Shown in pieces: positions 1,858-22,625 of a DNA stretch of 64,000 bases; the first letter of the stretch is position 1, and each line of letters begins with the position of its first letter. Below the pieces are notes generated by a model, which did no database searches, was not told where the DNA came from, and saw only the letters and a list, made by a program, of their open reading frames with translations. The position numbers were made by a program, and so were the translations under genes. Source of the DNA: an uncultured Candidatus Binatia bacterium (GTDB lineage Bacteria; Desulfobacterota; Binatia; Bin18); the NCBI GenBank assembly GCA_965214605.1, contig OZ243961.1, forward strand, positions 1,103,008-1,167,007, in the 5' to 3' direction.

Positions 1858-3996
1858 ATGACCAAACGAGAAAGACACACTGGCTGTGGTGAGCAGATGA
1901 CCCTGCTCACCCGGCGCGCCAGGGACGACCTCGGCACGCTAGTCGGCCAGTTGACAAGCGCCCAAGGAGACCGGCGCCGTGAGCTGCAAGCCCTTCTCCA
2001 ACGCCGGCTGACCGATCCAGGCCAGTTGGCAGACAGTTCGGTCCTGCCGGCTGACCACCCGCTGAGACGCCAGGCAAGGATTGTTCAGCAGCTGTTCAGC
2101 GCCGTCACTACTGCTCCGCTGTCGACGGGCGCCCTGGCCGGCTTAGACACCATCCCGCGCCAATCTCCGCTGGCACCCTGGAAATTACTCATCCGCGCAC
2201 TTGATGCGTTTTATCGCCGCGCAGATGAACTGGCTGAAGCCAATCTGGCCCGGATCCCGGCCGATTCCGGTCCGGGCCGTTTGGTCCCAGTCCTGCGAGC
2301 CCTGCTGAGTAAAACCGATACACTGGCTGAGTCGGAATTTCCCGACCCCAGCGCTCATGTAGCGGCCCTGTTGGAGCAGGTCAGCGCCGGCAATCACGCC
2401 CGACGCAGCCAGCTCAGCCAGGCACTGCTCTCTCATAACGAAAACCCTCCCCGCGCCACCCTACAACCCTTCCTCCCGTGGCTGGCCACTCTTCCGGCTA
2501 GCCATAGACACACGTTTATAAGGACGATGTTACACCACTGGCAACGGAATGGGGGGCTGTCACCCGGCCTCATAGACCTCCTCAGCCATCAAAGCATTGA
2601 CCCCGATATGCAGCGTCTTGCTGCCCTCAGCCTTGAACACCGCCACTGGGACGGGGCACTGCTGCTGTGGGACGCCTACCTCAGCGCGGCTCAGGCCGCA
2701 GGGCGGCTGTCTCCGAGCAGCCCGGAAACCGTTCATATTCTGCTGCATATGAGCGATCTGTTTCCGTCCGCTCCGCAGCAGATACTAGACGATTTAGGCC
2801 TGGCTTCTGAACAAGCACTCCGGCACCTGATCCGCACCGGCCAGTTTCCGGCCGTCTTTGATCGGGCCGCCCTGCTTGACCGGGCACGTCAAGCCGTCGG
2901 GGCTCTCTCGCCTCAACTCGGAGCACGGGTCTTTCGGGCCTCACTCGCCTACCATGAGCGGCGCGATGTCAAACGGGCCGAGGCTGAGGCCGAAGCCTGG
3001 CACAGCGCCTATCCGCACGATCTTGAGCCCCTGCTCTACCTGCTTGAAACCGCAGAAAAGCGTGGCGCAGTCCGAAAAGCGCTCGATTTTGTAGCCAAAG
3101 CAGAAGCCCTGAACCGCCTCCATCCCCAGCTACGGCACAGCCGGTTTCGGCTCCTGTTATCAAGAGCCGAGCGGCGGATTCAAGAGGCCAAATCCACGCT
3201 GGCCTTGGCCGATCTGGAACGCCTAGCCCAAGAACCACGAGCCAACGAGGGCGATACCAAAGCTTATCTGTTGTCTCTCAACTGGGCGCTCGCCCACAAA
3301 ATGGGCGATGCCGCCAGCGCCCAAAATCTGGCGCAGACCTTAGCCAGAACGGTCAACAATCAGGCTCTGCACGCCCTGATCCTCGCCACTGTGAGTGAGA
3401 TTACCAAAGTCTCTCGCCCTCAATGGTCAGCGAAAATTCCGTCCCTCCAGGCGATTGAGGGGCTGGCGCGGGCATGTGCCCTGTTTGGGGCGCTGAACCA
3501 TCGGGTAGCTGTACCGGACAGTTTCGTGAGCCAGGTTGAAAAAAACCTGGACAAGGCCACTGTGGCTCAGTTGCACGCCCTGTGTCACGGCGGCTTAGCC
3601 ATCGGGCAGCCAACCCTGACCTATATCGCTGCCGGTCACGGGCTGCGCTACCCAGAACCCCACCTGCACCGTTTTCTGTTGGCTCGCGGCAAAAGCCTAG
3701 GGGGAATACTCACCCATGCTCACCAAACCCGAGCCCGCAACTGTCTACGGGCGGCCCGTGAGTTGGCCAACCGGACACGGGATAAAGAGGCAACGGACCA
3801 GGCAGCGGCAGCACTCGACACACTGCCGACCTGGGGAGAGATAGAGGCCGTGCTGCTTGCTGCTCCCCACCACCCGCCTAGTCAGGCACAAATAGACCTG
3901 GCTCTTGAGGTCGAACGCCGTCATACTACGCCGCCACGTCTGGCCGGCCACGCGGCCGCTCACAGGCCCACTTTATCACAAGAAGCCTTGCGATAG
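1858..3996 (+). CDS. hypothetical 712-aa helical (TPR/HEAT-like composition) protein, first gene of the atypical Hsp70 cluster
   Basis: Long uninterrupted ORF, Leu/Ala/Arg-rich with no catalytic motif seen. Co-directional with and immediately upstream of the J-domain gene. Confidence 0.65.
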   Translation: MTKRERHTGCGEQMTLLTRRARDDLGTLVGQLTSAQGDRRRELQALLQRRLTDPGQLADSSVLPADHPLRRQARIVQQLFSAVTTAPLSTGALAGLDTIPRQSPLAPWKLLIRALDAFYRRADELAEANLARIPADSGPGRLVPVLRALLSKTDTLAESEFPDPSAHVAALLEQVSAGNHARRSQLSQALLSHNENPPRATLQPFLPWLATLPASHRHTFIRTMLHHWQRNGGLSPGLIDLLSHQSIDPDMQRLAALSLEHRHWDGALLLWDAYLSAAQAAGRLSPSSPETVHILLHMSDLFPSAPQQILDDLGLASEQALRHLIRTGQFPAVFDRAALLDRARQAVGALSPQLGARVFRASLAYHERRDVKRAEAEAEAWHSAYPHDLEPLLYLLETAEKRGAVRKALDFVAKAEALNRLHPQLRHSRFRLLLSRAERRIQEAKSTLALADLERLAQEPRANEGDTKAYLLSLNWALAHKMGDAASAQNLAQTLARTVNNQALHALILATVSEITKVSRPQWSAKIPSLQAIEGLARACALFGALNHRVAVPDSFVSQVEKNLDKATVAQLHALCHGGLAIGQPTLTYIAAGHGLRYPEPHLHRFLLARGKSLGGILTHAHQTRARNCLRAARELANRTRDKEATDQAAAALDTLPTWGEIEAVLLAAPHHPPSQAQIDLALEVERRHTTPPRLAGHAAAHRPTLSQEALR

Positions 3997-7958: not shown

Positions 7959-9173
7959 CTAATCCTTGAACTCAGGTAAAATCTCGCTGCCGAAAAGTTC
8001 GAGCTGGCGCTTGGCCTCGTCCCAGGGCATCAGGCCCTGGTCGAAAAACCAGCCGAACCATTCTATACTGCTGTTCTTGTGCAAGGCTTCGAGTTCACGT
8101 TTGACATCGTCCACTGTGCCGACCAGGGCGTACTTGGACTCGACCATGCGCTCGAAGGTATTTGGAACCGGGGTGGTTTCACCTGGAAAGCGATACGCCT
8201 CAAAAAAGCCAAATCCGGAGAAATACTCGATAAAGCCGGCGCCCTGACACGTTGCGCCTAAAGAGTAGGCCTGGGGGTAGGAATCGCCGAGGTGAACTGA
8301 CCGAAAGGCGCCCACACTCTGGCCAAGCGTGAGGTGACGGCCAACCTTGGCTGCTTCGTCACGGTAGGCTTCGCACAGCTCACGGAACGACGGTGGATGG
8401 GCAGTCAGAATCCAGGGCACGATATTCTCGGCCGCACACCAACGGATCGTTTTTTCACTGACCGAGAACGGTTGCCAGATCGGCGGATGGGGCTGGGTAT
8501 AGGGTTTGGGCACGACACAGATGCGCTGGACTACCCCGTTCTCGTCTACCTCGCCCTTGGCCCCGTATTTGGCGGTCCAATTTTTGGCTACCGGCCAGCG
8601 CTGAATCCCATGTTCGTAGGGAGTTGGAACCTCATAGTACTTTGTTTTGAAACGAATTGACTCTTGGGTCCAGGCCATCTTCATGATCTTGAAGACCTCT
8701 TCAAAAACCGCCCGGTTGTGGATGTCCACCTCTGAGCCGTCCATTGGTGCACCGGTCACATGATAATGCTGGCCAAGCACGTTCGTCCAGCGATCTTGAT
8801 AGCCCCGGGCAAATCCAGCCACAAAACGGCCCTTGGTCAGGTGATCCAGCACCGCGATCTCTTCCGCCACCCGAATCGGGTCCCAGGTCGGCAGGACCAG
8901 TCCCAGCGAGGCAAACTTAATCCGCTCGGTACGGGCGGCCAGATCGGTATACAGTAATAGCGGCGCAATGGAGGCTTCATAGCCTTCTGAGTGAAAATGA
9001 TGCTCGGTGGTCGACAACGCATCAAAGCCCAGGTCTTCAGCCATGTGGGCGATATCCCGCACCTCTTTTAGGAGGTCCTGATACTTCTCATTATCCCGGC
9101 CGATCGGCCGCAGCTTTTCACGCTCTTCAAATGTGGCTGGGATAGTCGGCAGCAAGAATAGATTAAATTTCAT
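7959..9173 (-). CDS. LLM-class (luciferase-like) flavin/F420-dependent oxidoreductase
   Basis: AGGAGGA SD 7 nt before ATG 9173. MKFNLFLLPT...DLGFDALSTTEHHFHSEGYE is the typical LLM N-terminus. Confidence 0.85.
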   Translation of the reverse strand: MKFNLFLLPTIPATFEEREKLRPIGRDNEKYQDLLKEVRDIAHMAEDLGFDALSTTEHHFHSEGYEASIAPLLLYTDLAARTERIKFASLGLVLPTWDPIRVAEEIAVLDHLTKGRFVAGFARGYQDRWTNVLGQHYHVTGAPMDGSEVDIHNRAVFEEVFKIMKMAWTQESIRFKTKYYEVPTPYEHGIQRWPVAKNWTAKYGAKGEVDENGVVQRICVVPKPYTQPHPPIWQPFSVSEKTIRWCAAENIVPWILTAHPPSFRELCEAYRDEAAKVGRHLTLGQSVGAFRSVHLGDSYPQAYSLGATCQGAGFIEYFSGFGFFEAYRFPGETTPVPNTFERMVESKYALVGTVDDVKRELEALHKNSSIEWFGWFFDQGLMPWDEAKRQLELFGSEILPEFKD

Positions 9174-9345
9174 ACGCGATCCTCCTGTGAGCCAAATGGT
9201 TAGGCCACCCTCTTTGGCTAGCATATGCACGCCGTTCCGTCATTAGGGGCGGTAGCGTCCAATCCGTCGCGCCCCTCTCCCGCATTGTTCTTCCCGTCCG
9301 GACAGGCTATAAGTCGGGGGGCGCGTCACAAACGGAGGGAATATA

Positions 9346-10499
9346 ATGGCGGATCAGCTACAACATGATTTGCTGCCACGGGCGAGCCACGATGAGCTCG
9401 CACGACAAAACTTTGTGCAAAGTCTGAAATTACACCTGGCAACAAAAATCGCCCCGGGCAATGAGCTTGTTTATGAAAAGCGGGCCAAACCCCGCTTTCA
9501 ACAACAGACAGGACGTCCGCCCAAAGACCGCCACGAAGTTCGCCGGAGCATGCGAGACGAGCCGTATTATCAGGCCTGGGGCTCACTGCAACGGACCAGT
9601 CAGGAGATGATGTGGGAGGCGGTCGACTCAAGCGTTGCGCGCCAGCTGCCTGAGCTTGTTGTGCGTGCCAGTCACAACGCCAAGCCCCTGGGCTCCTTAC
9701 GTCTCGATCCGGATCTTGCCATCCCAACCTATCACACGGCAGTCGATATTCACTGCCAACCCGGCGGCTATCATACTGAGTGCGGTCCGCAGGATGATGT
9801 GGCGGCTGGAGCGCTCTACGATCGCGCCGTCCATATCTACGCCATGAGCCGTCTGGGGACATTGAATGACGAGATGGGACAGTCGGTCGTGGTGTATTTG
9901 CAGCACCGCTATCCGGATTGCCGACCCACCCGAATCCTTGACATGGGCTGCACGGTTGGCCACAGCACGCTCCCCTATGTCGATGCCTATCCAGCGGCCC
10001 AGGTTTTTGCCATTGACGTGGGCGCGCCGGTGCTCCGCTACGCTCATGCCCGGGCTGAAGCGCTGGGCAAATGTGTTCATTTTTCGCAGCAAAACGCTGA
10101 ACGGACCACGTTTGCCGAAGCATCGTTTGACCTCATTGTGTCGCATATTTTGCTACACGAAACGTCGAGCAAGGCGCTCCGTAACATCGTTCGAGAAAGC
10201 TATAGGCTGCTCACTCCGGGCGGTCTGATGATCCACCAGGAGGTCTCCCAGTATCACGGCTTAGACCCCTACCAAGCCTTCATCCTTGATTGGGACACGT
10301 ACAACAATAACGACCGTTCTGGGGGACTCTGCGTGACACAGATCTGACCGCGATTGCTGTTGAAGCCGGCTTTGCCAAAGAGCAGGTCGTTGAGACGATG
10401 ATTCCGAGCGCCTTCCAGGTCAAAGGGCGCGCCCGACGTCTCCAGGCCGGCGACTTTGGCGGCAGCGGACAATGGTTCATCTTTGCTGCTACCAAATAG
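9346..10499 (+). pseudogene. class I SAM-dependent methyltransferase interrupted by a 1-nt frameshift near 10312
   Basis: ILDMGCTVGHS (motif I) and LLTPGGLMIHQE. The reading frame ends ...WDTYNNNDRSGGLCVTQI* at 10347. A shifted frame from 10314 reads PFWGTLRDTDLTAIAVEAGFAKEQVVETMIPSAF...FIFAATK* up to TAG 10497-10499. Confidence 0.7.
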
Positions 10500-10523
10500 T
10501 ACCAGGCTGCGGGGAAAAGAACG

Positions 10524-10856
10524 ATGACACGGACAGCCAAGGGCCAGCGTCCAGCCTTTTTTGACGACCCGCAGATTGACAAGCTGTTAGCGATAATCAT
10601 GGCTCTGGCCGGAGAAGTGAGCGTACTGCGGGAGCGGCTCGATACGGTCGAAAGACTGCTCGAGGCCGAAGGCCTCGTATCTCGTCGCAATATTGAAACC
10701 TACCGAGCGGACGCCGCCGCGGCTGTGGAACGAGAACGCTGGCGGGGAGAATATCTGGAGCGGATTCTGCGGGTTCTCCACCAAGAGCGGGAGACGATAG
10801 CAGACAGCAAAACGCTCCCATCCCACGAACGGGCGGTTCGCACCGGAACTTTGTAA
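10524..10856 (+). CDS. hypothetical small protein (coiled-coil-like)
   Basis: 110-codon ORF starting at an ATG, with charged heptad-like sequence. No recognised domain. Confidence 0.5.
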   Translation: MTRTAKGQRPAFFDDPQIDKLLAIIMALAGEVSVLRERLDTVERLLEAEGLVSRRNIETYRADAAAAVERERWRGEYLERILRVLHQERETIADSKTLPSHERAVRTGTL

Positions 10857-11518
10857 GAGCCAAGAGCGCAGTTTTGGCCTTTAACTTTCAGGATTTTCCC
10901 AATGTCTTTGATTCTCGGTGTTGACCTTGTCGGCACGTCGGCACATACACAAAGGCCATTTTTCGGCATCTCGCCCATCCTGACAGAAGGATGTCATCGA
11001 CCGACATCAGCATCCAGAATCGAGGTAATGCGCTATTTTTCCTTGATTTTCGAATAGCGACGAGGCGTGCATTGTCGTCTCCGATGCGCTTCAACGCGCC
11101 TGAGTTTCAGTCCGGTCGCTTGCGGTATGCTACGGTTCCATCCCCACCTGAAACAGGAACATTTACAGTTGACCAGGCACGGCGTCAGGCGGCGCTCGCC
11201 ATCGCCCGCATCAAGTACGTCGCGGAGCACCTGCCCAACGTCGGGGTAACCTTCGACAAGTTTCCTGTCGTCGCCCACGCATCGGGGCGCTCGACAAAAC
11301 ACAGCGCATCGGGCAGCGCCTCAACCCGAACTCAAGGACATGCGGTGGACCCTGCTGGGGATCCCGGAAGCCTCGGTTCCGAACACAGTATTGCCTTCTG
11401 CAACCTTATCGACTATAGTAGCCGGCGACCCAGCGAACCTACGTTACCAACCCGCCATTCTTCGGGCAGCCAAGTTTCTGTGGCGGCAAGAATATCGTCG
11501 AGCGAGGGCGGCACACCC

Positions 11519-12067
11519 ATGCGAATACGCCACTACTCCATAACGAAACGCCTCGTCTTCGTTGGGCCGTTTCTGTATGTGCTCGTGCTGGCGACGGCAT
11601 CCCTCACGGGGCGGGGAGAAATCTACCCCTTCTTTGCCTGGGACTTGTTCGCGGGGGTGCCGGCGGGGTGGGTCATCCAGACGCCCGCCGTGGTGGCGCA
11701 TCCGATGGACGACTCCCGAAATTTAGGGGGGGGGGGGGGACGCTGGGTCATTCCGTCCCCCGACCCCCGGCATTTGAAGGTGCTGCGCGAGGTCCTGCAC
11801 GCGTGTGAGCGCCGCGCGGCCCCCGCGTGCCGGTCCGCCGTGGCCCGCCTGCTGCTCCCCCTCGTCGTTGACGGCGTGGGGAGCGGCGCCGTGGAGTTCA
11901 GTCTCGTCTGGGCGGCCGTCGATCTGCGCGCCCTCCGGGAGGACATCTGGGCGCTCGCCGCCGGCCGCACGCAGCGCATGGACTATGCCCGGGTCGCTAC
12001 GGTGCTCTCGCGGTGGCGCGCGGCCGCGGCCGGCGGCCTGCACCGGGTTGATGGGGGCACCCCGTGA
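11519..12067 (+). CDS. hypothetical membrane-anchored protein containing a G14-encoded Gly run
   Basis: ATG 11519. MRIRHYSITKRLVFVGPFLYVLVLATASL is a TM anchor, followed by EIYPFFAWDLF. The stop overlaps the next start as GTGA. The tracked 358-aa ORF (10991..) probably over-extends upstream. Confidence 0.5.
   Translation: MRIRHYSITKRLVFVGPFLYVLVLATASLTGRGEIYPFFAWDLFAGVPAGWVIQTPAVVAHPMDDSRNLGGGGGRWVIPSPDPRHLKVLREVLHACERRAAPACRSAVARLLLPLVVDGVGSGAVEFSLVWAAVDLRALREDIWALAAGRTQRMDYARVATVLSRWRAAAAGGLHRVDGGTP
11726..11739. repeat. homopolymeric G14 tract inside a coding sequence
   Basis: Counted directly: ...aatttag then 14 G then acgctgg. It encodes GGGGG in the current frame. Confidence 0.95.
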
Positions 12068-13416
12068 ACGCTGCGCGGCTGCAGGGCCGGCTCCGCAAGA
12101 CCCTCCTCCACGTGGAGACGGGGGAGCGGCGGCGCGCGGCCGACTTCTCGCGGGCCGCGCGCCACATCGCCGTGCTGGTCCGGTTCTATTACATCTTCGT
12201 CGCGTACCTCCTCTTCGGCCGGTTCAAGGTTGCGAATTTGCTCCACGGCATTCCCCCGCCCGCGCCGTTGTGGCCCCTGGACCTGATGGCGACAGTCGCG
12301 GGCTCCGCGTGGCTCGCGTGGGGCGAGCTCCTCACGGCGGCGGGCGTGGGGGTGGCGCTGCTGGCGGCGCTGTGTCCGGGCGTGCTGCTCTTCCGGCTTG
12401 GGGTCTTCGTCTATCTCTTCATCGGCATCGCGCTGGCCAACTCCTATGGCGCCATCAGCCATGGGCGCCATCTCTTCCTCTATGTCTCCTTCGGGTTGTT
12501 GTGGCTGCCGGCGGCCATCGGCCGCCCGGAGCGCATGGCGCGCCGGGAGGCGATGGCGTGCAACGCGGCCTTCTGGCTGACACAGGCACTGCTGCTGCTG
12601 CCCTACAGCCTCAGCGGCTTCTGGACACTCTGGCGCAGCAACCTCCAGTTGGTGTCCCTCGACTCCTTCGTCCGGCTGGTCCTCGCCGGCCTGCTCGAAC
12701 AGGCCGGCGGGCCCCTCCCGCCGCTGGTCCCGTGGCTCGCCCAGTACCCCTCGGTCGGCCAGGGCTTGTATCTGGCGTTTTGCTATGTGGAAGGGCTGCT
12801 GCTCGTCAGTCTGTTCCGCCCCCACTTGCAGCGAGGGTTCGGCCTGGTCGTCATCGGGTTCCATCTCGGGACGCGGTGGCTGCTCGGCTTTGCCGCCGCT
12901 CCCTACCTCGTGCTCTGGTTCCTCTTCCTGGTGGCTTCGCCGTTCGCCGCGGCCCGGTTCTCCCCGGTCGCCACGGCGCGCTCGCTGCCGCTCCTCGGCC
13001 TCCCCTTCCGCGCGTGGGCGCGCTGGAGGCGCCCGGAGAAAGGGGCGGAGAAGGCGTGGCTGGTGTATGATGGCGAGTGCCCGTTCTGTTCGCGTTACTC
13101 ACGCATGGTCGATGTGAGAGATGCCATCGGCGAACTCATACTCGTGAACGCCCGCGATGGGGGGCCGATCGTGGACGAGATCAAGGCCCTGCCTTGGGAT
13201 CTCAACAGGGGCATGGTACTGAAACTGAACGGACGATACCGGTTTGGCGACGAGGCCCTGCACACCTTGGCGCTCCTGTCGCGGAAGAATGGCGCATTCG
13301 GCATCCTGAACCGTCTCGTGCTCGGTTCGCGCGCGGTCGCATGGTTCGCATACCCGCTGTTGAAGCTCTGCAGGAGGCTGGCGCTGATGGCGAAAAGGGT
13401 TCCGGTCCTGAAGTAG
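12064..13416 (+). CDS. fusion protein: polytopic membrane domain (possibly HTTM-like, unverified) + C-terminal DCC1-like thiol-disulfide oxidoreductase (DUF393)
   Basis: About 330 aa with multiple hydrophobic spans. Then WLVYDGECPFCSRYSRMVD carries the DxxCxxC motif that defines the DCC family, and the rest of the C-terminal domain is DCC-like. Confidence 0.75.
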   Translation: MNAARLQGRLRKTLLHVETGERRRAADFSRAARHIAVLVRFYYIFVAYLLFGRFKVANLLHGIPPPAPLWPLDLMATVAGSAWLAWGELLTAAGVGVALLAALCPGVLLFRLGVFVYLFIGIALANSYGAISHGRHLFLYVSFGLLWLPAAIGRPERMARREAMACNAAFWLTQALLLLPYSLSGFWTLWRSNLQLVSLDSFVRLVLAGLLEQAGGPLPPLVPWLAQYPSVGQGLYLAFCYVEGLLLVSLFRPHLQRGFGLVVIGFHLGTRWLLGFAAAPYLVLWFLFLVASPFAAARFSPVATARSLPLLGLPFRAWARWRRPEKGAEKAWLVYDGECPFCSRYSRMVDVRDAIGELILVNARDGGPIVDEIKALPWDLNRGMVLKLNGRYRFGDEALHTLALLSRKNGAFGILNRLVLGSRAVAWFAYPLLKLCRRLALMAKRVPVLK

Positions 13417-14110
13417 GAAACTCTTCGTAACGTTCACCTTCGCGACGGGGATCACCGACGCTACTGCTTGATGACGAAACCTTCATCAAGCGGGGAGATG
13501 CAGCGAATGCTGGCGGAGGGCATTGCGTCCGAGGACCGGCGGATTGTCGATCTGACGGTGCTGGATCTAAACGTTCAGTCGCCGCAGCACGGTCCCGACC
13601 TTCGGTGGGTGCAGGCTCACCCGTGGAGCTCAACCCGCCCCATCGCCGAGGTCCGTGCCCTACAGCGAGTATTGATTTCATGTCACGCCCAGGTCCGATT
13701 TCGCCCGGAGGACGTTTGGGAATAACCTCGGGGCGGAATGAATGGTTGGTGAAAGCCATGGAGAATTATATTGAGATTGCGCCTTAGGTTCACGGTCGGT
13801 CCCCGTTGATGGCCGTGGGCCGTCACAAGCGGGAAGAGGCGCAGGAATGGTTGGCGGCGTGTTTCCGGTGTCCGGCGTATTCGCTAGGCTGGCGTCGGTC
13901 GGGGCGGGTCTGCAACCGTTCCGGATGATCGATGGGAGGGGGCAAAAGGACCTGACGCCGCCCTCAACCGGCGTCAAGCCGGTGAAAGAATCGTCATCGA
14001 GAACCGCCGTGCGCTCGACGACAACGCATGGCGGCGAGCGTTACCAGCCTCTTGCGGGACCTCAATTCGATTGTGTATGATGACACCGACACGGTCACCC
14101 GTACGGCCCG

Positions 14111-14143
14111 ACCGAACAGTCACCAGAATCGTAACTGTTCGGT
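14111..14143. promoter_or_regulatory. perfect 10-bp inverted repeat ACCGAACAGT-N13-ACTGTTCGGT about 140 nt upstream of the hydantoinase A gene
   Basis: Read directly from the sequence. It lies in the AT-richer non-coding DNA preceding ATG 14281. Operator-like symmetry; the binding factor is unknown. Confidence 0.3.
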
Positions 14144-14280
14144 GACCTGTATGTGGAGAACGCAGACATGCACAGTTACGATGTTGATCGAATCCGCTTG
14201 CGGAATGCTTACGCTAACGGAAGTTTGCAAATGTTACTAGAATTTTTGTTCTTTTAAAAGAATAATGAAAACAATCTGTT

Positions 14281-16341
14281 ATGAGCTTCACAGGATCCGA
14301 TTACCGCATCGGAGTTGACGTAGGCGGCACCTTTACAGACCTGCTACTTTTTGACCAACAAACCGGCCACCAGGTCAGGGCCAAGACCCCCTCGACTCCA
14401 GACGATCCGTCGGTCGGCGTGCTGGCAGGGATTGATAAGATCTGTCGGGCGGCCCAGATCCCTGCGGCCCAGATCACCCACATTATGCATGGCACGACCG
14501 TAGCAACCAACGCAGTCCTGGAAGGCAAGGGTGCCCGGGTCGGCCTGATTACAACCGAGGGGTTCAAGCAGATCCTGCACCTGGCCCGCTCGTGGACGCC
14601 GGGTCCGCTGGCAGGCTGGATTACTATGGAGAAGCCCGATCCGCCTGCCGCAATTGAGTACACCCGAGAGGCTAAGGAGCGGATCGACACCCACGGCAAT
14701 ATTGTCACCCCGCTCGACGAGGATGCGCTGCGAGACGCGCTAGACGACTTGGTCGGTCAAGCTATTGAAGCCCTCACCATCTCCCTGATTAACTCGTATA
14801 CCAATCAGATTCACGAAAAGCGGATTAAAGCCATTGCCCAGGAACTCTATCCCGATCTGCCGGTCACTGCTTCCTCTGAGGTTCTACCCGAGTTCCGTGA
14901 GTATGAGCGCACCCTGACCGCGGTGATGAACTCCTATGTCCGCCCTACCGTTTCGGTCTATTTACGGAATTTCGCCGATCAGTTGATTGATCACGGGCTA
15001 CGCGCAGAGGTGAATATCCTGCGCTCCGACGCGGGTCTGATGACCTTACGCATGGCCCAAGAACGGCCGGTGTACGCCGTCATGTCGGGTCCGGCCGGTG
15101 GGGTTGCAGGAGCGCTGTTTACCGCCACCACAGCCGGCTTTGGTAATATTCTCACCCTGGATATGGGCGGGACCTCAACCGACGTCGCGCTGTGTCAGAA
15201 CGGCACGCAGACTATCGCCCGCGAGACAACACTGGGCTATTTTCCAATCAAAGTTCCCTCGGTTGATGTACGCAGCATTGGGGCTGGGGGTGGCTCGATT
15301 GCCCATGTGCCGGAGATTACGAATGCTCTGCGGGTTGGTCCGCAGAGCGCAGGGGCAGAGCCGGGGCCGGCGTGTTACGGTCGGGGCGGAACCCAACCAA
15401 CGGTGACAGACGCTAATCTTGTGCTCGGCCATCTGCCCCCTCGACTGCTAGGCGGTGAGATGCGTCTGGACGAAGAGGCCGCGCACGCTGCGGTTGAGAG
15501 CGTAGGCCGCAAACTTGGTTTAGACGTCTATCGGGCCGCGCAGGGCATTGTGGATATTGTCAATGAGAACATACATGGCGCGTTACGCCTGGTCTCAGTG
15601 CAACGCGGCTATGACCCGCGCAATTTTGCACTCGTGGCTTTTGGTGGTGCAGGTCCCCTCCACGCCAACGCGGTGGCCAGCCTAATTGGCTCATTCCCTC
15701 TCATCATCCCCCCCGCACCCGGGATACTATGTGCCACCGGCGATGTGTGTTCCGACTACCGTGAAGAGTTCGCTCGGACCGTACTGCGGACCCTGGACCA
15801 GCTGCCGGCGGCTGAGGTTAAACAGTTGCTCCAGGAACTCGGCAGCGAGGCCGCCGGCTGGCTTGAGCGCGAGGGCATTCCCCGCTCCCAGCAGGACATA
15901 TTCTATAACGCCGACATGCGCTATTTCCGCCAAGGCTACGAGCTGCCGATCGTCATTACGCTCGAAGACTTACAGGCACAGGGGATCGGCATCCTAGCCG
16001 ACCGCTTCCACGCTTTGCACGAACAGTTGTACCGCTTTCGGCTCGACGCGGAGTGCGAAATCGTCAACCTGCGGGCCGTGGCTCTGGGTAAAGGGGCGCG
16101 CTTCAGCCTGAACGCAGCGGACCTCGACGGCCCGGACGCGGCCCATGCCCAAACCGACGAGCACCGGACTTATTTTGACGGCAATTTTCTGCCCACACCA
16201 ATCTATGATCGGTTCAAGCTCAGACCCGGTAACCGGCTCACCGGCCCAGCCATCGTTACTGAAATGGACTCGACCACCGTCGTCCTGCCGCACTGTACGG
16301 CTGAGGTCGATCGCTACGCCAATATTTTGGTTCGACCGTAG
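14281..16341 (+). CDS. hydantoinase A / oxoprolinase family protein (HyuA-like)
   Basis: YRIGVDVGGTFTDLLL N-terminus, LDMGGTSTDV, FGGAGPLHA. 686 aa. Confidence 0.9.
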   Translation: MSFTGSDYRIGVDVGGTFTDLLLFDQQTGHQVRAKTPSTPDDPSVGVLAGIDKICRAAQIPAAQITHIMHGTTVATNAVLEGKGARVGLITTEGFKQILHLARSWTPGPLAGWITMEKPDPPAAIEYTREAKERIDTHGNIVTPLDEDALRDALDDLVGQAIEALTISLINSYTNQIHEKRIKAIAQELYPDLPVTASSEVLPEFREYERTLTAVMNSYVRPTVSVYLRNFADQLIDHGLRAEVNILRSDAGLMTLRMAQERPVYAVMSGPAGGVAGALFTATTAGFGNILTLDMGGTSTDVALCQNGTQTIARETTLGYFPIKVPSVDVRSIGAGGGSIAHVPEITNALRVGPQSAGAEPGPACYGRGGTQPTVTDANLVLGHLPPRLLGGEMRLDEEAAHAAVESVGRKLGLDVYRAAQGIVDIVNENIHGALRLVSVQRGYDPRNFALVAFGGAGPLHANAVASLIGSFPLIIPPAPGILCATGDVCSDYREEFARTVLRTLDQLPAAEVKQLLQELGSEAAGWLEREGIPRSQQDIFYNADMRYFRQGYELPIVITLEDLQAQGIGILADRFHALHEQLYRFRLDAECEIVNLRAVALGKGARFSLNAADLDGPDAAHAQTDEHRTYFDGNFLPTPIYDRFKLRPGNRLTGPAIVTEMDSTTVVLPHCTAEVDRYANILVRP

Positions 16342-16704
16342 ACGTGGCGGGAGGAAAGCAAGCTAGAGCATGGATGAACAGTCCCTCGACCTTGCTCAAC
16401 GAGCAGTCATCGCCTTGGCAACGGTGCCAAAGCCTGAAAAGCCTGAGATGTCTCCCGGTGACTGAGTAGCCCTGAGAGTCGGCATGTCCCACGGTTTGCT
16501 CATTGTCTGGGGCTTCTGTAAGGTGCATACTAGAGAGTGGAGAATGACTAGACGTTCGCGCAACGCAAGAAAGAAAAGTAGGCACTCTATCCACCCGGTA
16601 TGACCTGCACGTGGTCGAGTTGACAGACAGCGAGTTCCAGAACCTTGACGACAACCTAGTGCAGCCCCTGCTCCTCTTCGGCATCAATTGCACCTGACAC
16701 ATCT

Positions 16705-17400
16705 ATGACAGTAGCCTCCCCCCTTCTCCCCGACCCAATAGCCAAGCTGGTCGCTGGCGCCTTAGCCTTCCGCCAGGACGAATACGGAGCTGGCAGCAGC
16801 CTCATGCCCCGTTTGGCCGCTGGCCAGCAGCCCCACGTCCTGATGATTGGATGCAGCGACTCGCGCGTTGATCCGGCCCTACTCTGCGGTACAAGGCCTG
16901 GCGATCTATTCGTTGTTCGCAATGTCGCTAACCTAGTGCCGGCCTATGACCAGCGCGACAGCCTGGGCCAGGGGGTGCGCGCAGCTCTCGAATATGGCGT
17001 GAAAGCGCTGAAGGTTTCACACATCGTCGTGCTCGGCCACTCCCACTGCGGCGGCATCCGGGTCCTGATTGATACAGCCCGAGGCAGAGCGCCTGCATTT
17101 GAATGTATCGGCCCATGGCTCAGCCTGGCCGGCGATGTCTGCGACCGAGTGTTGAAGCAGCTGGCCGCGGATTCCTCAAAACATGTGACCACAGAGCAGC
17201 TGCCAACCTACGCTCCGCTGGTCGAGCGCCAAGCCGTCCTGCACTCTCTTCACAACCTCCGCACTTATCCCTGGATCAGCACCAGAATCGCCAGCGAGAC
17301 ATTGAGCCTACACGGCTGGTGGTTTGATCTCGATTCCGGGCGGCTATGGACGACCCAAGCGCCGGCTTCGGACAAGCTCACCCTGCTTGAGGCCGAGTGA
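16705..17400 (+). CDS. beta-class carbonic anhydrase
   Basis: IGCSDSRV and GHSHCGG zinc-ligand motifs. 231 aa. Confidence 0.9.
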   Translation: MTVASPLLPDPIAKLVAGALAFRQDEYGAGSSLMPRLAAGQQPHVLMIGCSDSRVDPALLCGTRPGDLFVVRNVANLVPAYDQRDSLGQGVRAALEYGVKALKVSHIVVLGHSHCGGIRVLIDTARGRAPAFECIGPWLSLAGDVCDRVLKQLAADSSKHVTTEQLPTYAPLVERQAVLHSLHNLRTYPWISTRIASETLSLHGWWFDLDSGRLWTTQAPASDKLTLLEAE

Positions 17401-17480
17401 ATGAGTCCCTGGCCGTCGGCTTTTCTCTAAGCGCCCTATCTGGTAGCTGAAGGGGAGAGTTGGCAGAGAGGAGCACAACT

Positions 17481-19370
17481 ATGCGCGACGTGAACATCGC
17501 TACTATTCCAGACCTTGAGGTTGACCCGGTAACGCTCGACATCATTGAGAGTGCGCTCAAGAACTATCGCTACGAAATGGACGCGGTGCTGTACCGTACC
17601 GCCATGTCGCCCGTTATTCGGGAACAGCACGACGAGTTTCCGATGATTTGCGACCCCAACGGTCGGATGGTCGTCGGCCAGTTCGGCTCGTATATCCGGG
17701 AGATGATGGACGGCTTCGACCGTCCAATCTACCCCGGCGATGTTATCCTGCTCAACGACCCCTATCTGTGCGGCGGAGCGATCTCGCATATCAACGATTT
17801 TTTGGTTTTAGTCCCGATCTTTGACGGCGATGAGCTAATCGGCTGGACGTCGATGTTTGGCCACCAAATGGATGTCGGTGGCCCTCTGCCCGGCTCTTTT
17901 CCGACCAACGCCACCTCCATTTTTGGCGAGGGGCTGCGTATCCCACCGGTCAAGCTGTTTGAGAAGGGCGCCCTGAACGAGGATATCTTGCATTTGATTC
18001 TCAACAATGTGCGCATCCCGATCATGAACCGCTCCGATCTGATGGGCATTGTGGCCGGCTGCAAAACCGCCGAGCAGAGAGTCACAGAGCTGTGTGAGCG
18101 GTTTGGCCGCGACACGTATTTGGCTGCTTGTCAGGCCCTGCTCGACCGCACCCGGCGAGCCATGCAGACGCTCATCAAGCGCAATATTTCGACCGAACCG
18201 CAGTCTTTTGAGGACTATGTTGACGACGACGGGCTAGGCAACGGACCGTTCAAAATGAAACTCACTATTTGGCGTGAAGAGGAGAAAGTCGTCTTCGACT
18301 GGACCGGCACAGACCCGCAGGCGGCCGGGCCGATTAACTTCTACCTGAACGAAGGTATGTTCAAAATGTTCATCGGCGTCTACCTGATCATGGTCTATGA
18401 CCCGCAGATTCTGTTCAACGACGGCTTTTATGATCTGATTGAGGCGCGCTTGCCCGACGGCTCCCTGCTCCACCCCAAGTTTCCAGCGGCCCTCGGCTGC
18501 CGCACCCACGCCCTAGCTCGGCTGTTTGACGTGATGAGCGGTTGCCTCGGCCAGAAGAGCCCCGAGCTGACCACCGCGGCTGGCTACGGCACCAGCCCCC
18601 ACCTGCTGTATAGCGGAACCGACAAAAAGGGGGAGTTTTTCTTTATTATGGAGATCAGCTACGGCGGCATCCCGGGCCGACCGGTCGGCGACGGCATAGA
18701 CGGCCATTCGTGGTGGCCGCTGTTCACCAATATTCCGACTGAGTATTTGGAGAGCTACTGCCCACTGCGGATTGATCGTTACGCCTCGGTGATGGATTCC
18801 GGCGGAGCCGGCCTGCACCGCGGAGGCAATGGCATAGATAAATGGTATACTTTTCTAGAACCCGGTGAGATCGCCATTCATGACGATCGTTGGTTGACCC
18901 CGCCGTGGGGGATCTTGGGCGGCAAGCCGGGCATGCGGTCCAAAAAAATCCTGATTCGTACAGATGGCAGCCAAGAAGTCTTGCCCTCGAAGTGCGATCA
19001 AATCAAAGTTGAGTCAGGTGACCAACTGATCTACCAGACAGCTGGCGCCGGAGGTTGGGGAGACCCGCTGAAGCGAGCGGCAGAGAAAGTGCGCAGCGAT
19101 GTGGTGCGGGATCTGGTGTCTGTTGACAAGGCGCGGCGCGAGTACGGTGTTGTGCTTGATCCAGACACCGCTCAGGTCGATCAAGACGCCACCGGTCAGC
19201 TGCGTGAACAGCTGGCCCAAAAGCGGGACGAGCAGCCCACCTTTGACTTCGGTCCCCCATTGCCCGAGTTGCTTGCTCGTTGCAAACAAGAAACCGGTTT
19301 GGAGCCGCCGACTCCGCCGAGCCTGCCGGACAACTGGGCCGTCAATGGAGCCAAGAAACGGGCGGCCTGA
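17481..19370 (+). CDS. hydantoinase B / oxoprolinase family protein (HyuB-like)
   Basis: EVDPVTLDIIESAL..., NDPYLCGGAISHINDF and SGGAGLHRGGNG motifs typical of HyuB. ATG 17481 is preferred over the TTG at 17460. Confidence 0.9.
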   Translation: MRDVNIATIPDLEVDPVTLDIIESALKNYRYEMDAVLYRTAMSPVIREQHDEFPMICDPNGRMVVGQFGSYIREMMDGFDRPIYPGDVILLNDPYLCGGAISHINDFLVLVPIFDGDELIGWTSMFGHQMDVGGPLPGSFPTNATSIFGEGLRIPPVKLFEKGALNEDILHLILNNVRIPIMNRSDLMGIVAGCKTAEQRVTELCERFGRDTYLAACQALLDRTRRAMQTLIKRNISTEPQSFEDYVDDDGLGNGPFKMKLTIWREEEKVVFDWTGTDPQAAGPINFYLNEGMFKMFIGVYLIMVYDPQILFNDGFYDLIEARLPDGSLLHPKFPAALGCRTHALARLFDVMSGCLGQKSPELTTAAGYGTSPHLLYSGTDKKGEFFFIMEISYGGIPGRPVGDGIDGHSWWPLFTNIPTEYLESYCPLRIDRYASVMDSGGAGLHRGGNGIDKWYTFLEPGEIAIHDDRWLTPPWGILGGKPGMRSKKILIRTDGSQEVLPSKCDQIKVESGDQLIYQTAGAGGWGDPLKRAAEKVRSDVVRDLVSVDKARREYGVVLDPDTAQVDQDATGQLREQLAQKRDEQPTFDFGPPLPELLARCKQETGLEPPTPPSLPDNWAVNGAKKRAA

Positions 19371-19421
19371 GAAGGAGAAAAATCGAAGGCCAAGGGTCCA
19401 AAACTCTTTGGGGAAGACACG

Positions 19422-20177
19422 ATGGGGAAACTCGACAATAAGATCGCCCTCGTCACCGGCTCCAGCAGCGGCATCGGAAAGACTGTTGCTCTAGCCTTTG
19501 CCGACCAAGGCGCCGATCTCGTCCTCAACTATCCGAATGATTCCCAGCTGCAAAACGTCACTCGCGTCAAGGAAGACATTGCCGCCTTCGGACGCCGGGT
19601 GATCGCCGTCCGAGCCGATGTCTCCCAGGAAGACCAGGTGCAGAGCTTAATTGACACGACCGTTCAAACCTACGGACGGATTGATATTCTGGTCAATAAT
19701 GCCGGGATCGGCACGGCCAGCCTGGTCGAGAACATGTCGATCACGATGTGGGATGAAATGCTAGCTGTCAACTTACGCAGCGTCTTCCTATGCACCCGTC
19801 TAGTTTTACCGCTCATGTATCAACAAAACTCCGGCAAGATCATTAACACCGCCTCACAGCTTGCCTATAAAGGCGCGCCGGGACTCAGCCATTACTGTGC
19901 GGCCAAAGCCGCCATCATTGGCTTTACTCGCTCCCTGTCACACGAGATCGGCACCCGGAATATTAACGCTAACTGTGTGGCGCCAGGTGCAACCCATACC
20001 CCTCTTGTGGACGGTCTCAACAAAGAAGCGGTTGAGGCGATTCGGGCGGCTATTCCCAAGGGCCGACTGGCGACGGTGGATGAAATTGCTCCAACCTATG
20101 TCTTTTTGGCTTCAGACGAATCGCGGCACTTTGTTGGCCAGTGCCTCAGCCCCAACGGCGGAGACGTCATGCTCTAA
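19422..20177 (+). CDS. SDR family oxidoreductase (FabG-like)
   Basis: VTGSSSGIG, NNAG, S...YCAAK catalytic motif. Confidence 0.9.
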   Translation: MGKLDNKIALVTGSSSGIGKTVALAFADQGADLVLNYPNDSQLQNVTRVKEDIAAFGRRVIAVRADVSQEDQVQSLIDTTVQTYGRIDILVNNAGIGTASLVENMSITMWDEMLAVNLRSVFLCTRLVLPLMYQQNSGKIINTASQLAYKGAPGLSHYCAAKAAIIGFTRSLSHEIGTRNINANCVAPGATHTPLVDGLNKEAVEAIRAAIPKGRLATVDEIAPTYVFLASDESRHFVGQCLSPNGGDVML

Positions 20178-20265
20178 GACATTCGGCCGACCCTTCTCTT
20201 CCCTTTTCTCCGCCCTCTGCCTCCTGCCTTGTCACACCTGGTCCACCCAGATACACTCGGCCGCC

Positions 20266-21501
20266 ATGCCTCAACCGCCCTCCGCCTCCACGGTGTCATC
20301 CCAGCTGTCCCAGGATCCGACTCCCCAACCAACCCTGTTCACCTCCAATTACGTGCTGCTATGTGTCAGCGCTTTTCTGTTTTCGGGTAGCATGTTCATA
20401 CTGTTTGCGGTTCTACCGCTGTTCGTTGTTCAGGAACTGCATGGAGCAGAATCCCAGGTCGGCCTCATTATGGGTGCGTTTGCCATCTCGGCGGTGTTGA
20501 CTCGACCTTTCTCTGGACTGCTGGTTTCGATCTGGAGCCGAAAAAGCGGGCTAAGCATCGGAACCTTCATCTATTTCCTGGCTCCTGCCCTGTACACCTT
20601 GGCCGGATCAGTGTCGCTCATGCTAGGCCTACGTTTTTTTCACGGCATCGGCATTGCCATCTATACCACCGCGTCGAGCGTATTTGTCGCCGACCTGTCT
20701 CCTCCCTCCCGGCGTGGAGAAGCCATGGGGTATTACGGCATGGCGCTGAACCTGTCGATGACAATCGGCCCAGCCCTAGGCGCCTATCTGGTCGGCAAGA
20801 TCGGCTTTATCAATCTGTTTTGGCTGTCCGCAGCGCTGGCGCTAGCTAGCTTCTTGCTCACCCTGCTCCTGCACGAACCCCACCGTTCTCCACCACCGCC
20901 TCAGACCCCGGCCAAGCGTCCGCCCTTATTCCACCGGTCCGCCCTGTTTCCGGGGCTGATTGCGGTCTGCATGACCATGACCTTTGGCACGGTCGTGTCC
21001 TTTCTGCCGCTGTTTGTGCAGGCTCACCAACTCGGCAACCCAGGTCTGTTCTTTACCGTATACTCCATTGCTGTAGTTGTCTCGCGTCCCTTTGCTGGCC
21101 GGCTGTCAGACCGCTTTGGCCGGCCGGTGGTGATCATCCCCGGTATGCTGCTGCTGACTATGGCGATGACTATCTTGGCGTTCTCAAGTAGCCAGTTCGG
21201 AATGCTCAGCGCGGCTGTCTTTCAAGGCTTCGGCTTTGGTGGTGTCCAGCCATCACTGATGGCCCAGGTGGTCGATCGCTCAACCGACCACGATCGTGGT
21301 CCGGCGCTGGCCACGCTGATGGGGGCATTCGATGTAGGTGTCGGTCTGAGCTCGGTCGGTCTAGGCCTGGTCCTGGGAGCCACAAGCTTTCCCGTTACCT
21401 TTCTATGCGCAGCCGGGATTGGTCTGTTTGGCGCCGCGGCGTCGACCTGGGACGCGTTCTTGCGTCAACCGGCTCAGTCCGTCCCTGGCAAGACCTTGTG
21501 A
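20266..21501 (+). CDS. MFS transporter
   Basis: About 12 hydrophobic spans and an MFS loop motif (GRLSDRFGRP). ATG 20266. The tracked ORF start at 19861 overlaps the SDR gene and is rejected. Confidence 0.85.
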   Translation: MPQPPSASTVSSQLSQDPTPQPTLFTSNYVLLCVSAFLFSGSMFILFAVLPLFVVQELHGAESQVGLIMGAFAISAVLTRPFSGLLVSIWSRKSGLSIGTFIYFLAPALYTLAGSVSLMLGLRFFHGIGIAIYTTASSVFVADLSPPSRRGEAMGYYGMALNLSMTIGPALGAYLVGKIGFINLFWLSAALALASFLLTLLLHEPHRSPPPPQTPAKRPPLFHRSALFPGLIAVCMTMTFGTVVSFLPLFVQAHQLGNPGLFFTVYSIAVVVSRPFAGRLSDRFGRPVVIIPGMLLLTMAMTILAFSSSQFGMLSAAVFQGFGFGGVQPSLMAQVVDRSTDHDRGPALATLMGAFDVGVGLSSVGLGLVLGATSFPVTFLCAAGIGLFGAAASTWDAFLRQPAQSVPGKTL

Positions 21502-21701
21502 ACAAGCCACCATGCCCATTCGATAAGTGCAGCGACTTTTGATCCGCCCCCTGTCAGGAAGCTGCGACTGTTGGCATGCCCGAAGGGCAAGTGGAGGGCC
21601 AAGCCCAAGTCAGCGTCGAATTGGTCGCAGACCGATTTGTCCTACAAGCAAACCTCGACTAGAGCCTGAAAGAGCTGGAATCGTGTCTCACGCTCCGCTT
21701 G

Positions 21702-21783
21702 GGGAAGGGGCCGGTCGTGGCGGTTCGTCTTATCACGGCTCTGGCAAAGCTGTTGCAGAGCGGTAGGGGCAGGGCCCCTTCCC
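21702..21783. repeat. 11-bp inverted repeat (GGGAAGGGGCC ... GGCCCCTTCCC) with a ~60-nt spacer between convergent genes
   Basis: Arms at 21702-21712 and 21773-21783, read directly. No U-tract, so not a canonical intrinsic terminator. Confidence 0.3.
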
Positions 21784-21797
21784 GGCCCGGTTGTAGA

Positions 21798-22625
21798 CTA
21801 CTGCTCGAACTGAATCGAAAAGCCTTCGCGCTCGTTGTTCTCCTTATCAATCAAGATCGTGCTGGCCGAACTGTAAGTACCCATCGGATAGAACAGAAAG
21901 CCGCTCACTCGTTGCCCCGGTTGCAGGGTTTCCACCTGCAGAGCCTTACTCTGGCTGCCCGCCGGTGCCGTAATTGGTGTGACCCGTCCTCCCCCGGCAA
22001 CGCGCAGATAAACCTTGTCGAGCTCAATCCCATACGGTCGTGAAGTATTGTTGTGGATCTCAACTTTGATCGGCAGGATGCCGCTGGCCGGCAAATCGGA
22101 CCCCAGTTCGATCTGAGACTCAAAGCCGTCGAAGGGGGTCAGGGTCATATTCAGCCCGCCCTTGGCTTCTTGTTTGTCATACGCTTCCTGGTTAGCAGCT
22201 AAGATACCAAAGGTCCGGGCAAAATTATTATGAAAACCGCCGGGTCGCTCAGCCGCGCCGATCAGCGATGGGACTGCCACCCCGCCCCGCTCGGGGACTA
22301 CGGTGACCCCGTCAGCGCCACAGGTGATGGTGACTCGGCCACCCTCGCCTTGGCGCGCCTCCGTATTAGTGCCAGCAATGATGTAGCCGGGCGAGCCAGG
22401 GGTGGCGACCTGGACCGACTTCACCGGATGGCCCAGTATCTGGACTGCCCGGTAGGCTAAACGGTTGGCCTGTTCACAGCCCAGCTTTGGAACAGACACC
22501 GTCCGAGTCCGGGGCGGCATAGTTGGGGTACAGCTTGTCAACACTAGCCCGGCTGCACATACCGAGAAAAACAGCACTTGGTGATATAACACAACTCCTC
22601 CCAAGAACTCGCGTTGTTCTAGCAT
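21798..22625 (-). CDS. hypothetical lipoprotein
   Basis: The N-terminal hydrophobic stretch ends in a lipobox-like LTSC. No recognised catalytic motif. Confidence 0.55.
   Translation of the reverse strand: MLEQREFLGGVVLYHQVLFFSVCAAGLVLTSCTPTMPPRTRTVSVPKLGCEQANRLAYRAVQILGHPVKSVQVATPGSPGYIIAGTNTEARQGEGGRVTITCGADGVTVVPERGGVAVPSLIGAAERPGGFHNNFARTFGILAANQEAYDKQEAKGGLNMTLTPFDGFESQIELGSDLPASGILPIKVEIHNNTSRPYGIELDKVYLRVAGGGRVTPITAPAGSQSKALQVETLQPGQRVSGFLFYPMGTYSSASTILIDKENNEREGFSIQFEQ

Follow-up and report, generated by a model that had tools for sequence, protein, structure and literature searches.

In Escherichia coli, the cynTSX operon includes a carbonic anhydrase (CA), CynT, whose gene shares a transcript with that of cyanase and which turns CO2 back into the bicarbonate required by cyanase. 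Bicarbonate is also the substrate of the acetone carboxylases (AcxABC) and acetophenone carboxylases (Apc), which belong to the hydantoinase/oxoprolinase superfamily. Another member of this superfamily, the caprolactamase CapAB of Pseudomonas jessenii (PDB 6YRA), showed no activity without bicarbonate and activities of 0.017, 0.19 and 0.39 U/mg at 0.5, 5 and 50 mM, respectively, and its authors consider a carboxyphosphate intermediate that would release CO2 (PMC8453981). Here, we describe a locus of an uncultured Candidatus Binatia bacterium in which a beta-class CA gene lies between hyuA and hyuB, the genes for the A and B subunits of an enzyme of this superfamily. The locus was analyzed within a stretch of 64,000 nucleotides of contig OZ243961.1 (positions 1,103,008 to 1,167,007), hereafter the window. 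From this gene order, a first-pass annotation of the window had suggested that the enzyme performs a bicarbonate- or CO2-linked reaction rather than ring hydrolysis. Comparison of orthologous operons indicates that the hyuA-hyuB spacer of Binatia is an insertion-prone cargo slot and that the CA is one cargo gene, confined to the window and two related loci, L001 and L002. In the explanation that we favor, and consider probably correct, the CA is an accessory gene, specific to its lineage and long retained, that occupies the cargo slot of a hydrolase-type HyuAB operon; it would be read through from hyuA and act as an optional bicarbonate helper.

The hyuA gene (14281-16341, + strand) encodes the ATP-binding subunit, of 686 aa, with the Pfam domains Hydant_A_N, Hydantoinase_A and Hydant_A_C (E 9e-90), and hyuB (17481-19370, + strand) encodes the metal-site subunit, of 629 aa (Hydantoinase_B, E 3e-147). 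Between them, on the same strand at 16705-17400, is a gene for a 231-aa protein that matches Pfam Pro_CA (E 2.7e-43, 148.4 bits vs. a cutoff of 25.7) over the full 156-position profile. All three open reading frames (ORFs) are intact and co-oriented, and their positions and the CSDSR and HSHCGG motifs of the CA are as the first-pass annotation gave them. The longer form of the second motif, GHSHCGG, and CSDSR are both kept in L001, and L002 has GHSQCGG, which retains the H-x-x-C pair; in this enzyme family, these motifs hold the zinc ligands Cys...His-x-x-Cys and the Asp-x-Arg dyad. The gene product is a beta-class CA and is predicted to hydrate CO2. Downstream of it, the segment 17401-17480 (+ strand) is the hyuB leader, homologous to a leader of 54-56 nt that is duplicated in L001 and L002; hyuB starts with the ATG at 17481, 3' of the ribosome-binding site GAGAGGAG, in agreement with the MRDVNIA start of its homologues. 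An assembly chimera, in which the CA was mis-joined between hyuA and hyuB, is refuted for practical purposes. The region from the 3' end of hyuA through the gap and the CA to the 5' end of hyuB (window 15334-17528) is matched at 99.7% identity, all junctions included, by a short-read contig from a different sample (L120), and the hyuA-CA order is shared by L001 and L002.

To determine how often the CA accompanies hyuA and hyuB, we examined orthologous loci of two kinds: 45 of the Binatia type, with a HyuB identity of 84% or more (46 loci when the window is counted), and 68 more distant ones (HyuB 67-73% identical). The CA was absent from 43 of the 45 and was found between hyuA and hyuB solely in L001 (HyuA 88% identical) and L002 (84%), which with the window makes 3 of 46; it occurred in none of the 68 distant loci within the fetched flanks. 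Relatives as close as 92% and 86% in HyuA lack it, with spacers of 12 nt (P0006, 92%) and 44 nt (P0024, 86%) and a gap of ~620 nt (P0002, 92%). Thus, co-conservation of the CA, which the first-pass annotation had proposed as a check of its hypothesis, was not observed. Its expectation that hyuA and hyuB normally sit side by side was borne out, the spacer being 12-169 nt in all 68 distant loci and no longer than 44 nt in 18 of the 46 Binatia-type loci. Hydantoinase_A and Hydantoinase_B were found in adjacent, co-oriented genes in every orthologue without cargo.

Among the 46 Binatia-type loci, the spacer ranges from 12 nt to 3.8 kb: 18 are empty (12-44 nt), 8 have 100-133 nt, and 20 carry genes (up to 3.8 kb). 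AT-rich heptamer-repeat hairpins make up 7 of the 8 spacers of 100-133 nt. At least seven cargo families were recognized, all on the + (operon) strand of the slot: the CA (Pfam Pro_CA); DUF433 and DUF5615 toxin-antitoxin pairs (Pfam); a GmrSD type IV restriction enzyme (PADLOC Orf5, 2.9e-173); a 300-aa Zn-ribbon/PD-(D/E)xK nuclease (PADLOC candidate PDC-S69, 1.6e-73); two small membrane proteins; and a 67-aa ORF that is sometimes fused into a protein of 485-511 aa. The last had been considered HicB-like, a label that its matches support weakly (Pfam UPF0150, E 0.03; HicB in the PDB, E 0.07). Insertions lie 3' of the stop codon of hyuA and 5' of the ribosome-binding site of hyuB; each cargo gene starts ~10 nt past the preceding stop, with a ribosome-binding site of its own. 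When the loci were clustered by HyuA and HyuB, empty and differently filled slots were interleaved inside tight clades, that is, the cargo is patchily distributed. No cargo genes were found elsewhere in the window or in flanks of +-10 kb.

The window itself carries traces of earlier cargo. The first-pass annotation had described ~360 bp of non-coding DNA followed by a complete CA gene; the CA is indeed complete, but the 363 bp before it (16342-16704) hold two decayed cargo genes, which were identified by tblastn and blastn. One, at 16370-16603 (+ strand), is a pseudogene of p117, a small membrane-protein gene. It is 50% identical to the 117-aa cargo protein of L001 over window 16352-16585 (tblastn), and blastn with the gap sequence gave 75% identity to L001. 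Its in-frame TGA at 16463-16465 stands where L001 has a Trp codon (TGG to TGA), and the ORFs 16370-16465 and 16484-16603 share one frame. The other, at 16560-16697 (+ strand), is the 3' remnant of a PDC-S69-like nuclease gene, consisting of the last 45 codons and the stop, which lies 7 nt before the CA start; it is 47% identical to the L010 protein, which has 299 aa, over residues 255-299 (tblastn) and 71-75% identical to L009, L010, L015 and L027 (blastn).

In contrast to these remnants, the CA appears to have been maintained. Its orthologues in the slots of L001 and L002 are 79% and 74% identical, respectively, and the ratio of nonsynonymous to synonymous divergence (dN/dS) of 0.21-0.43 points to purifying selection. 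Synonymous divergence (dS) was 0.55-0.58, vs. 0.68 for hyuA and hyuB. The GC content at third codon positions (GC3) of the window CA, 0.694, falls between those of hyuA (0.672) and hyuB (0.710); in L001 it is 0.81 vs. host values of 0.83/0.83, and in L002 it is 0.86, for which the host value was not computed. Other cargo (the 67-aa ORF and its fusions, GmrSD, DUF433/DUF5615 and TM152) has a GC3 of 0.50-0.64 vs. about 0.72-0.83 for host genes, while the PDC-S69-like nuclease (0.66 vs. 0.72) and p117 (0.76 vs. 0.83) are nearer to the host. Because its dS is close to that of hyuA and hyuB, its sequence is under purifying selection and its GC3 is host-like, the CA is best read as an old, retained resident of the slot whose divergence has more or less kept pace with that of hyuA and hyuB. 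No CA paralogues were found in the window.

Next, we considered the kind of enzyme that hyuA and hyuB encode, as ranked by phmmer and hidden Markov model scores. Against solved structures, HyuA scored 472 bits with N-methylhydantoinase (7hk5, E 2e-140), 394 with caprolactamase (6yra), 296 with acetophenone carboxylase and 258 with acetone carboxylase (AcxB); the corresponding scores of HyuB were 245 (E 1.4e-71), 221 (CapB), 125 (ApcD) and 60 (AcxA), so that the rank order was identical for both subunits and N-methylhydantoinase was the best solved relative of each. The clustering is not tight, HyuA being 39.8% identical to N-methylhydantoinase and 35.9% to CapA, and the former value is too low for inferring the substrate of HyuAB. 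The top NCBIfam models were CapA for HyuA (544.5 bits) and CapB for HyuB (240.4 bits), both below the equivalog cutoff of 1000; the carboxylase models ApcC, ApcA and ApcD gave 312, 206 and 116 bits, below cutoffs of 1250-1500. HyuA contains DVGGTFTD, DMGGT and GAEPGP, in which the CapA patterns DxGGTxxD, DxGGT and GxxPGP are all present, and the metal tetrad Asp41/His99/Asp102/His124 of CapB aligns with D51/H103/D106/H128 of HyuB. The first-pass annotation had advised searching 16342-16704 for a small gamma-like subunit. None was found there, the + strand ORFs of at most 41 aa being cargo remnants, and a 148-aa minus-strand ORF in the gap had no Pfam or NCBIfam match. There was likewise no small-subunit gene between hyuB and the next gene of the operon, and no paralogues of HyuA or HyuB were found in the window. 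These results indicate that HyuAB is a complete two-subunit ATP-dependent enzyme of the hydrolase branch (lactamase/N-methylhydantoinase type), not of the carboxylase type. It is a relative of caprolactamase but not an equivalog, and not an orthologue of any characterized enzyme.

It is therefore very unlikely that HyuA, HyuB and the CA form a new bicarbonate-consuming carboxylase of the acetone or acetophenone carboxylase kind, as the first-pass annotation had hypothesized. The superfamily does include carboxylases, the ATP and metal sites are common to both enzyme types, and the CA is embedded in the operon and under selection. However, the similarity to carboxylases is weak (AcxA, 60 bits; ApcD, 116-125 bits; far under the equivalog cutoffs of 1500), HyuB has 629 aa vs. 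776 aa for AcxA, there is no gamma, beta or epsilon small subunit, and orthologues at 92% identity have no CA. Most of what the annotation had named as evidence against a CO2-linked reaction was in fact found: the CA is absent from nearly all orthologous clusters, and both subunits score nearer to hydrolases, although they do not cluster tightly with them. A more modest form of its idea may survive. Since CapAB is a hydrolase and yet depends on bicarbonate, a link to bicarbonate needs no carboxylation, and the strict requirement of CapAB for bicarbonate provides a rationale for a linked CA.

According to the explanation that we favor, the CA would have entered the slot a single time, in the common ancestor of the three CA-bearing lineages (window, L001 and L002), and been kept under selection while the adjoining cargo turned over. 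Read through from the hyuA promoter, it would be made whenever the enzyme is made, and it would rehydrate CO2 to bicarbonate beside a bicarbonate-activated ATPase subunit, as in caprolactamase. An optional role in bicarbonate recycling is plausible as the most likely benefit of the CA. Signals in the spacers were examined in this context. Counts of promoter- and terminator-like sites were at or below shuffled expectation, with none inside the slot, and no terminator-like site was found in 17401-17480. No Rfam element was detected in 13000-22000 at E values up to 1. The lack of promoter-like, terminator-like and Rfam elements in the slot is consistent with read-through transcription. A structured RNA or riboswitch in the spacers was also considered and was rejected, as there was no Rfam match and the leader between the CA and hyuB folded no better than shuffled sequence (z -1.3).

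The main rival to a helper role is that the CA is a pure passenger, a housekeeping enzyme whose gene landed in or relocated to an insertion-tolerant spacer and was kept for the CO2/bicarbonate balance of the whole cell, with no functional tie to HyuAB. We regard this as a serious alternative, although an unlikely one. It would account for the absence of the CA from 43 of the 45 close operons and all 68 distant ones, and for its sharing a slot with functionally unrelated toxin-antitoxin and defense genes; the nearest homologues of the CA outside the slot, at 60-64% identity, lie in unrelated neighborhoods, and host-like GC3 fits a native gene. On the other hand, the CA has stayed at exactly this position through a dS of ~0.55 in three lineages while the cargo next to it decayed, and the closest profile family of the enzyme is bicarbonate-dependent. 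Several observations nevertheless weigh against the helper explanation. More than 100 orthologous operons have no CA, and the enzyme evidently works without it there. A lineage whose slot is empty (L029-31, HyuA 92% identical) is nested among the CA carriers, branching between the window and L001, so a single gain of the CA requires a later loss. Although it is under purifying selection, the CA evolves faster than its neighbors (dN/dS 0.21-0.28 vs. 0.07-0.13 for hyuA and hyuB), and if it were the only beta-CA of the genome, selection on it would say nothing about HyuAB. Bicarbonate dependence has been shown for one family member, of ~36% identity, and is unreported for hydantoinases and oxoprolinases. 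Finally, the evidence for co-transcription is the absence of consensus signals.

The slot also offers evidence of how its cargo arrives, in the form of duplicated ends of the host genes. Besides the hyuB leader of 54-56 nt that is repeated in L001 and L002, the 3' end of hyuA recurs inside the slot, as its last 22 codons in L121 (6030-6095) and its last 14 codons in L125 (4945-4986) and L126 (2503-2544), and an upstream copy of its first 37 codons is present in L029 (6346-6456) and L033 (6355-6465). The internal hyuA tag of L125 ends '...ILIRPREQ*' directly 5' of the nuclease gene, and L010, L015 and L027, whose cargo begins with this nuclease, have exactly the same hyuA ending. Because duplicated host-gene ends flank the inserted DNA, cargo probably accumulates by homology-anchored insertion. 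DNA would arrive on fragments with homology to hyuA or hyuB and be joined at one homologous and one illegitimate end, which would leave duplicated hyuA or hyuB ends with all cargo in operon orientation and would also explain the uniform orientation observed. As a separate observation, the hyuA-CA interval of L001 contains a direct repeat of 38 nt without mismatches (12061-12098 and 12133-12170, 72 nt apart).

Alternatively, the slot could be specialized for site-specific capture, in the manner of an integron or by means of a homing nuclease, with the CA as a captured cassette, which we consider improbable. Such a system would fit the precise placement of insertions, after the hyuA stop and before the ribosome-binding site of hyuB, a single cargo orientation and repeated junction sequences. 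Nuclease homologues of no more than 70-73% identity are again in the slot and travel with the hyuA 3' tag, so homing may contribute. However, the boundaries are sloppy, a 67-aa ORF being truncated by an insertion in L009 and the remnants being fused in the window, and the CA module comes without a nuclease. In a repeat search at the cargo junctions of six slots, made without a dedicated attC model, the repeats found were direct ones of the hyuB leader, with no inverted repeats of the attC type. Among the called genes within 5-8 kb in L029, L033-L037, L121 and L125, none matched a Pfam family of integrases or recombinases; the flanks of the window were partly scanned. The integron idea was rejected on these two grounds. 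A broader possibility, which we regard as quite unlikely, combines both themes: the slot would be a self-perpetuating capture site inside the operon, in which cargo bearing a hyuA 3' end or a hyuB leader as its tag, notably the PDC-S69-like nuclease, moves between genomes by nuclease-driven homing or anchored recombination, stacks defense and toxin-antitoxin genes, and occasionally fixes a metabolic helper such as the CA, coupling CO2/bicarbonate recycling to a bicarbonate-activated ATP-dependent lactamase.

The AT-rich heptamer hairpins were also examined as a possible landing pad. They fill the spacer in seven relatives (L025, at 9118-9245; L040; L042-L045; L119), and the hairpin of L025, (AAGAGTT)x3...(AACTCTT)x3, has a predicted dG of -33.9 (z -5.7). 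The idea was rejected, as similar repeats occur in other intergenic spacers of the same genomes (L025, 12213-12243; L034, 7854-7882 and 13430-13485; L043, 8961-8988) and the window has none. The repeats are thus a general feature and have not been shown to be causal.

Two further loci show arrangements of related genes. The 1042-nt spacer of L041, upstream of hyuB at 3386, holds DUF433 and two further small + strand ORFs that, judged by eye, may be a RelE/ParE-type toxin and a Phd/YefM-type antitoxin. In L123 (1721-6885), a 65%-identical homologue of the PDC-S69-like nuclease lies between a 700-aa UvrD-helicase gene and a separate 183-aa UvrD_C fragment; helicase and nuclease may natively form one system here, or the helicase gene may have been split by an insertion.

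Downstream of hyuB, the window encodes an oxidoreductase of the short-chain dehydrogenase/reductase (SDR) family (19422-20177, + strand; Pfam adh_short), a conserved operon partner, and a major facilitator superfamily (MFS) transporter (~20300-21501, + strand; MFS_1, E 4.6e-60), whose exact start is uncertain (the mechanical ORF is 19861-21501). The SDR, 76-89% identical, follows hyuB in most Binatia loci, and the MFS gene is next in most. The order hyuA-hyuB-SDR-MFS is therefore a conserved unit in most Binatia relatives, in keeping with the small catabolic unit that the first-pass annotation had pictured. In most of these relatives, a gene of ~190 aa with a lipoprotein-like N-terminus and no family match stands between hyuB and the SDR (e.g., L029, 11968-12537). 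The loci without it are precisely the three that bear the CA: the window (19371-19421), L001 and L002, the last two of which have no SDR either. In L033, a 92%-identical relative, hyuB is disrupted (10052-11060): a 5' fragment with a stop is followed by an insert of ~130 nt, and the gene is called as two pieces, which suggests that the operon may be decaying.

Upstream of hyuA, a minus-strand ORF of 265 aa (9326-10123) is probably spurious. The + strand ORF at 9346-10347, in the same region (9326-10347), encodes a class I methyltransferase and is the counterpart of a gene upstream of hyuA in relatives. Between the conserved pair of this methyltransferase and a 110-aa gene on one side and hyuA on the other, the window has two extra + strand ORFs (10991-13416, local GC 0.66), the first (358 aa) matching no family and the second (450 aa) carrying a DCC1-like domain at its C-terminus. 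In relatives such as L034, hyuA begins ~150 nt after the 110-aa gene, so there is a second variable slot upstream of hyuA.

Several consequences follow from these results. A gene that sits between those of two subunits is easily taken for a third part of the enzyme, whereas comparison of more than 110 operons showed the CA to be optional cargo, which calls for caution in inferring function from neighborhoods. A suitable annotation for the operon is ATP-dependent amidohydrolase of the hydrolase type, with no substrate assigned, rather than carboxylase. Should the helper role prove true, bicarbonate dependence of the caprolactamase type would extend to other family members, and the CA and HyuAB would be a natural CA-enzyme pair for lactam or nylon-monomer biocatalysis. 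The slot, with its duplicated host-gene ends inside an operon, is a more interesting by-product of the analysis than the CA itself. It provides a compact natural example, from an uncultured phylum, of defense and toxin-antitoxin genes accumulating within an operon, in which the duplicated ends record the insertion mechanism.

Literature searches returned nothing relevant on hydantoinases of Binatia or on gene clusters in which a CA accompanies a hydantoinase or carboxylase. Operon-embedded CAs and accessory or defense hot spots flanked by core genes are known kinds already, and the CA described here is a further member. As in cynTSX, a beta-CA is embedded in a catabolic operon whose enzyme, in our working model, uses bicarbonate as a recycled cofactor or substrate; in cyn, however, the CA is a fixed member, whereas here it occupies a cargo slot and is present in 3 of 46 related operons. 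CapAB resembles HyuAB as a two-subunit ATP-dependent ring-opening enzyme with the same ATP motifs and Asp-His-Asp-His tetrad and as the source of its top NCBIfam models. It differs in that the similarity is low and far below equivalog level, and the CapAB paper mentions no CA gene in the capAB operon (PMC8453981). The solved N-methylhydantoinase (PDB 7HK5 series) is a single fused chain of 1288 aa, whereas HyuAB is encoded by two genes. AcxABC and Apc share the superfamily and have homologous ATP and metal subunits, but they are much less similar, need extra small subunits that HyuAB does not have, and in the case of AcxA are ~150 aa longer than HyuB.

The slot, in turn, resembles defense islands and core-gene-flanked hot spots in its conserved flanks, variable content, defense and toxin-antitoxin genes, GC below that of the host and patchy distribution on the tree. 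It differs from them in being internal to an operon, where it separates the two subunit genes of a single enzyme, with co-oriented cargo at tight ribosome-binding-site spacing, in having no integrase or tRNA nearby, and in holding a metabolic gene, the CA, as well. With integron cassette arrays it shares promoterless, co-oriented small genes, often toxin-antitoxin pairs, stacked behind one promoter; unlike them, its boundaries are imprecise and have no attC hairpins, and the called neighboring genes include no IntI.

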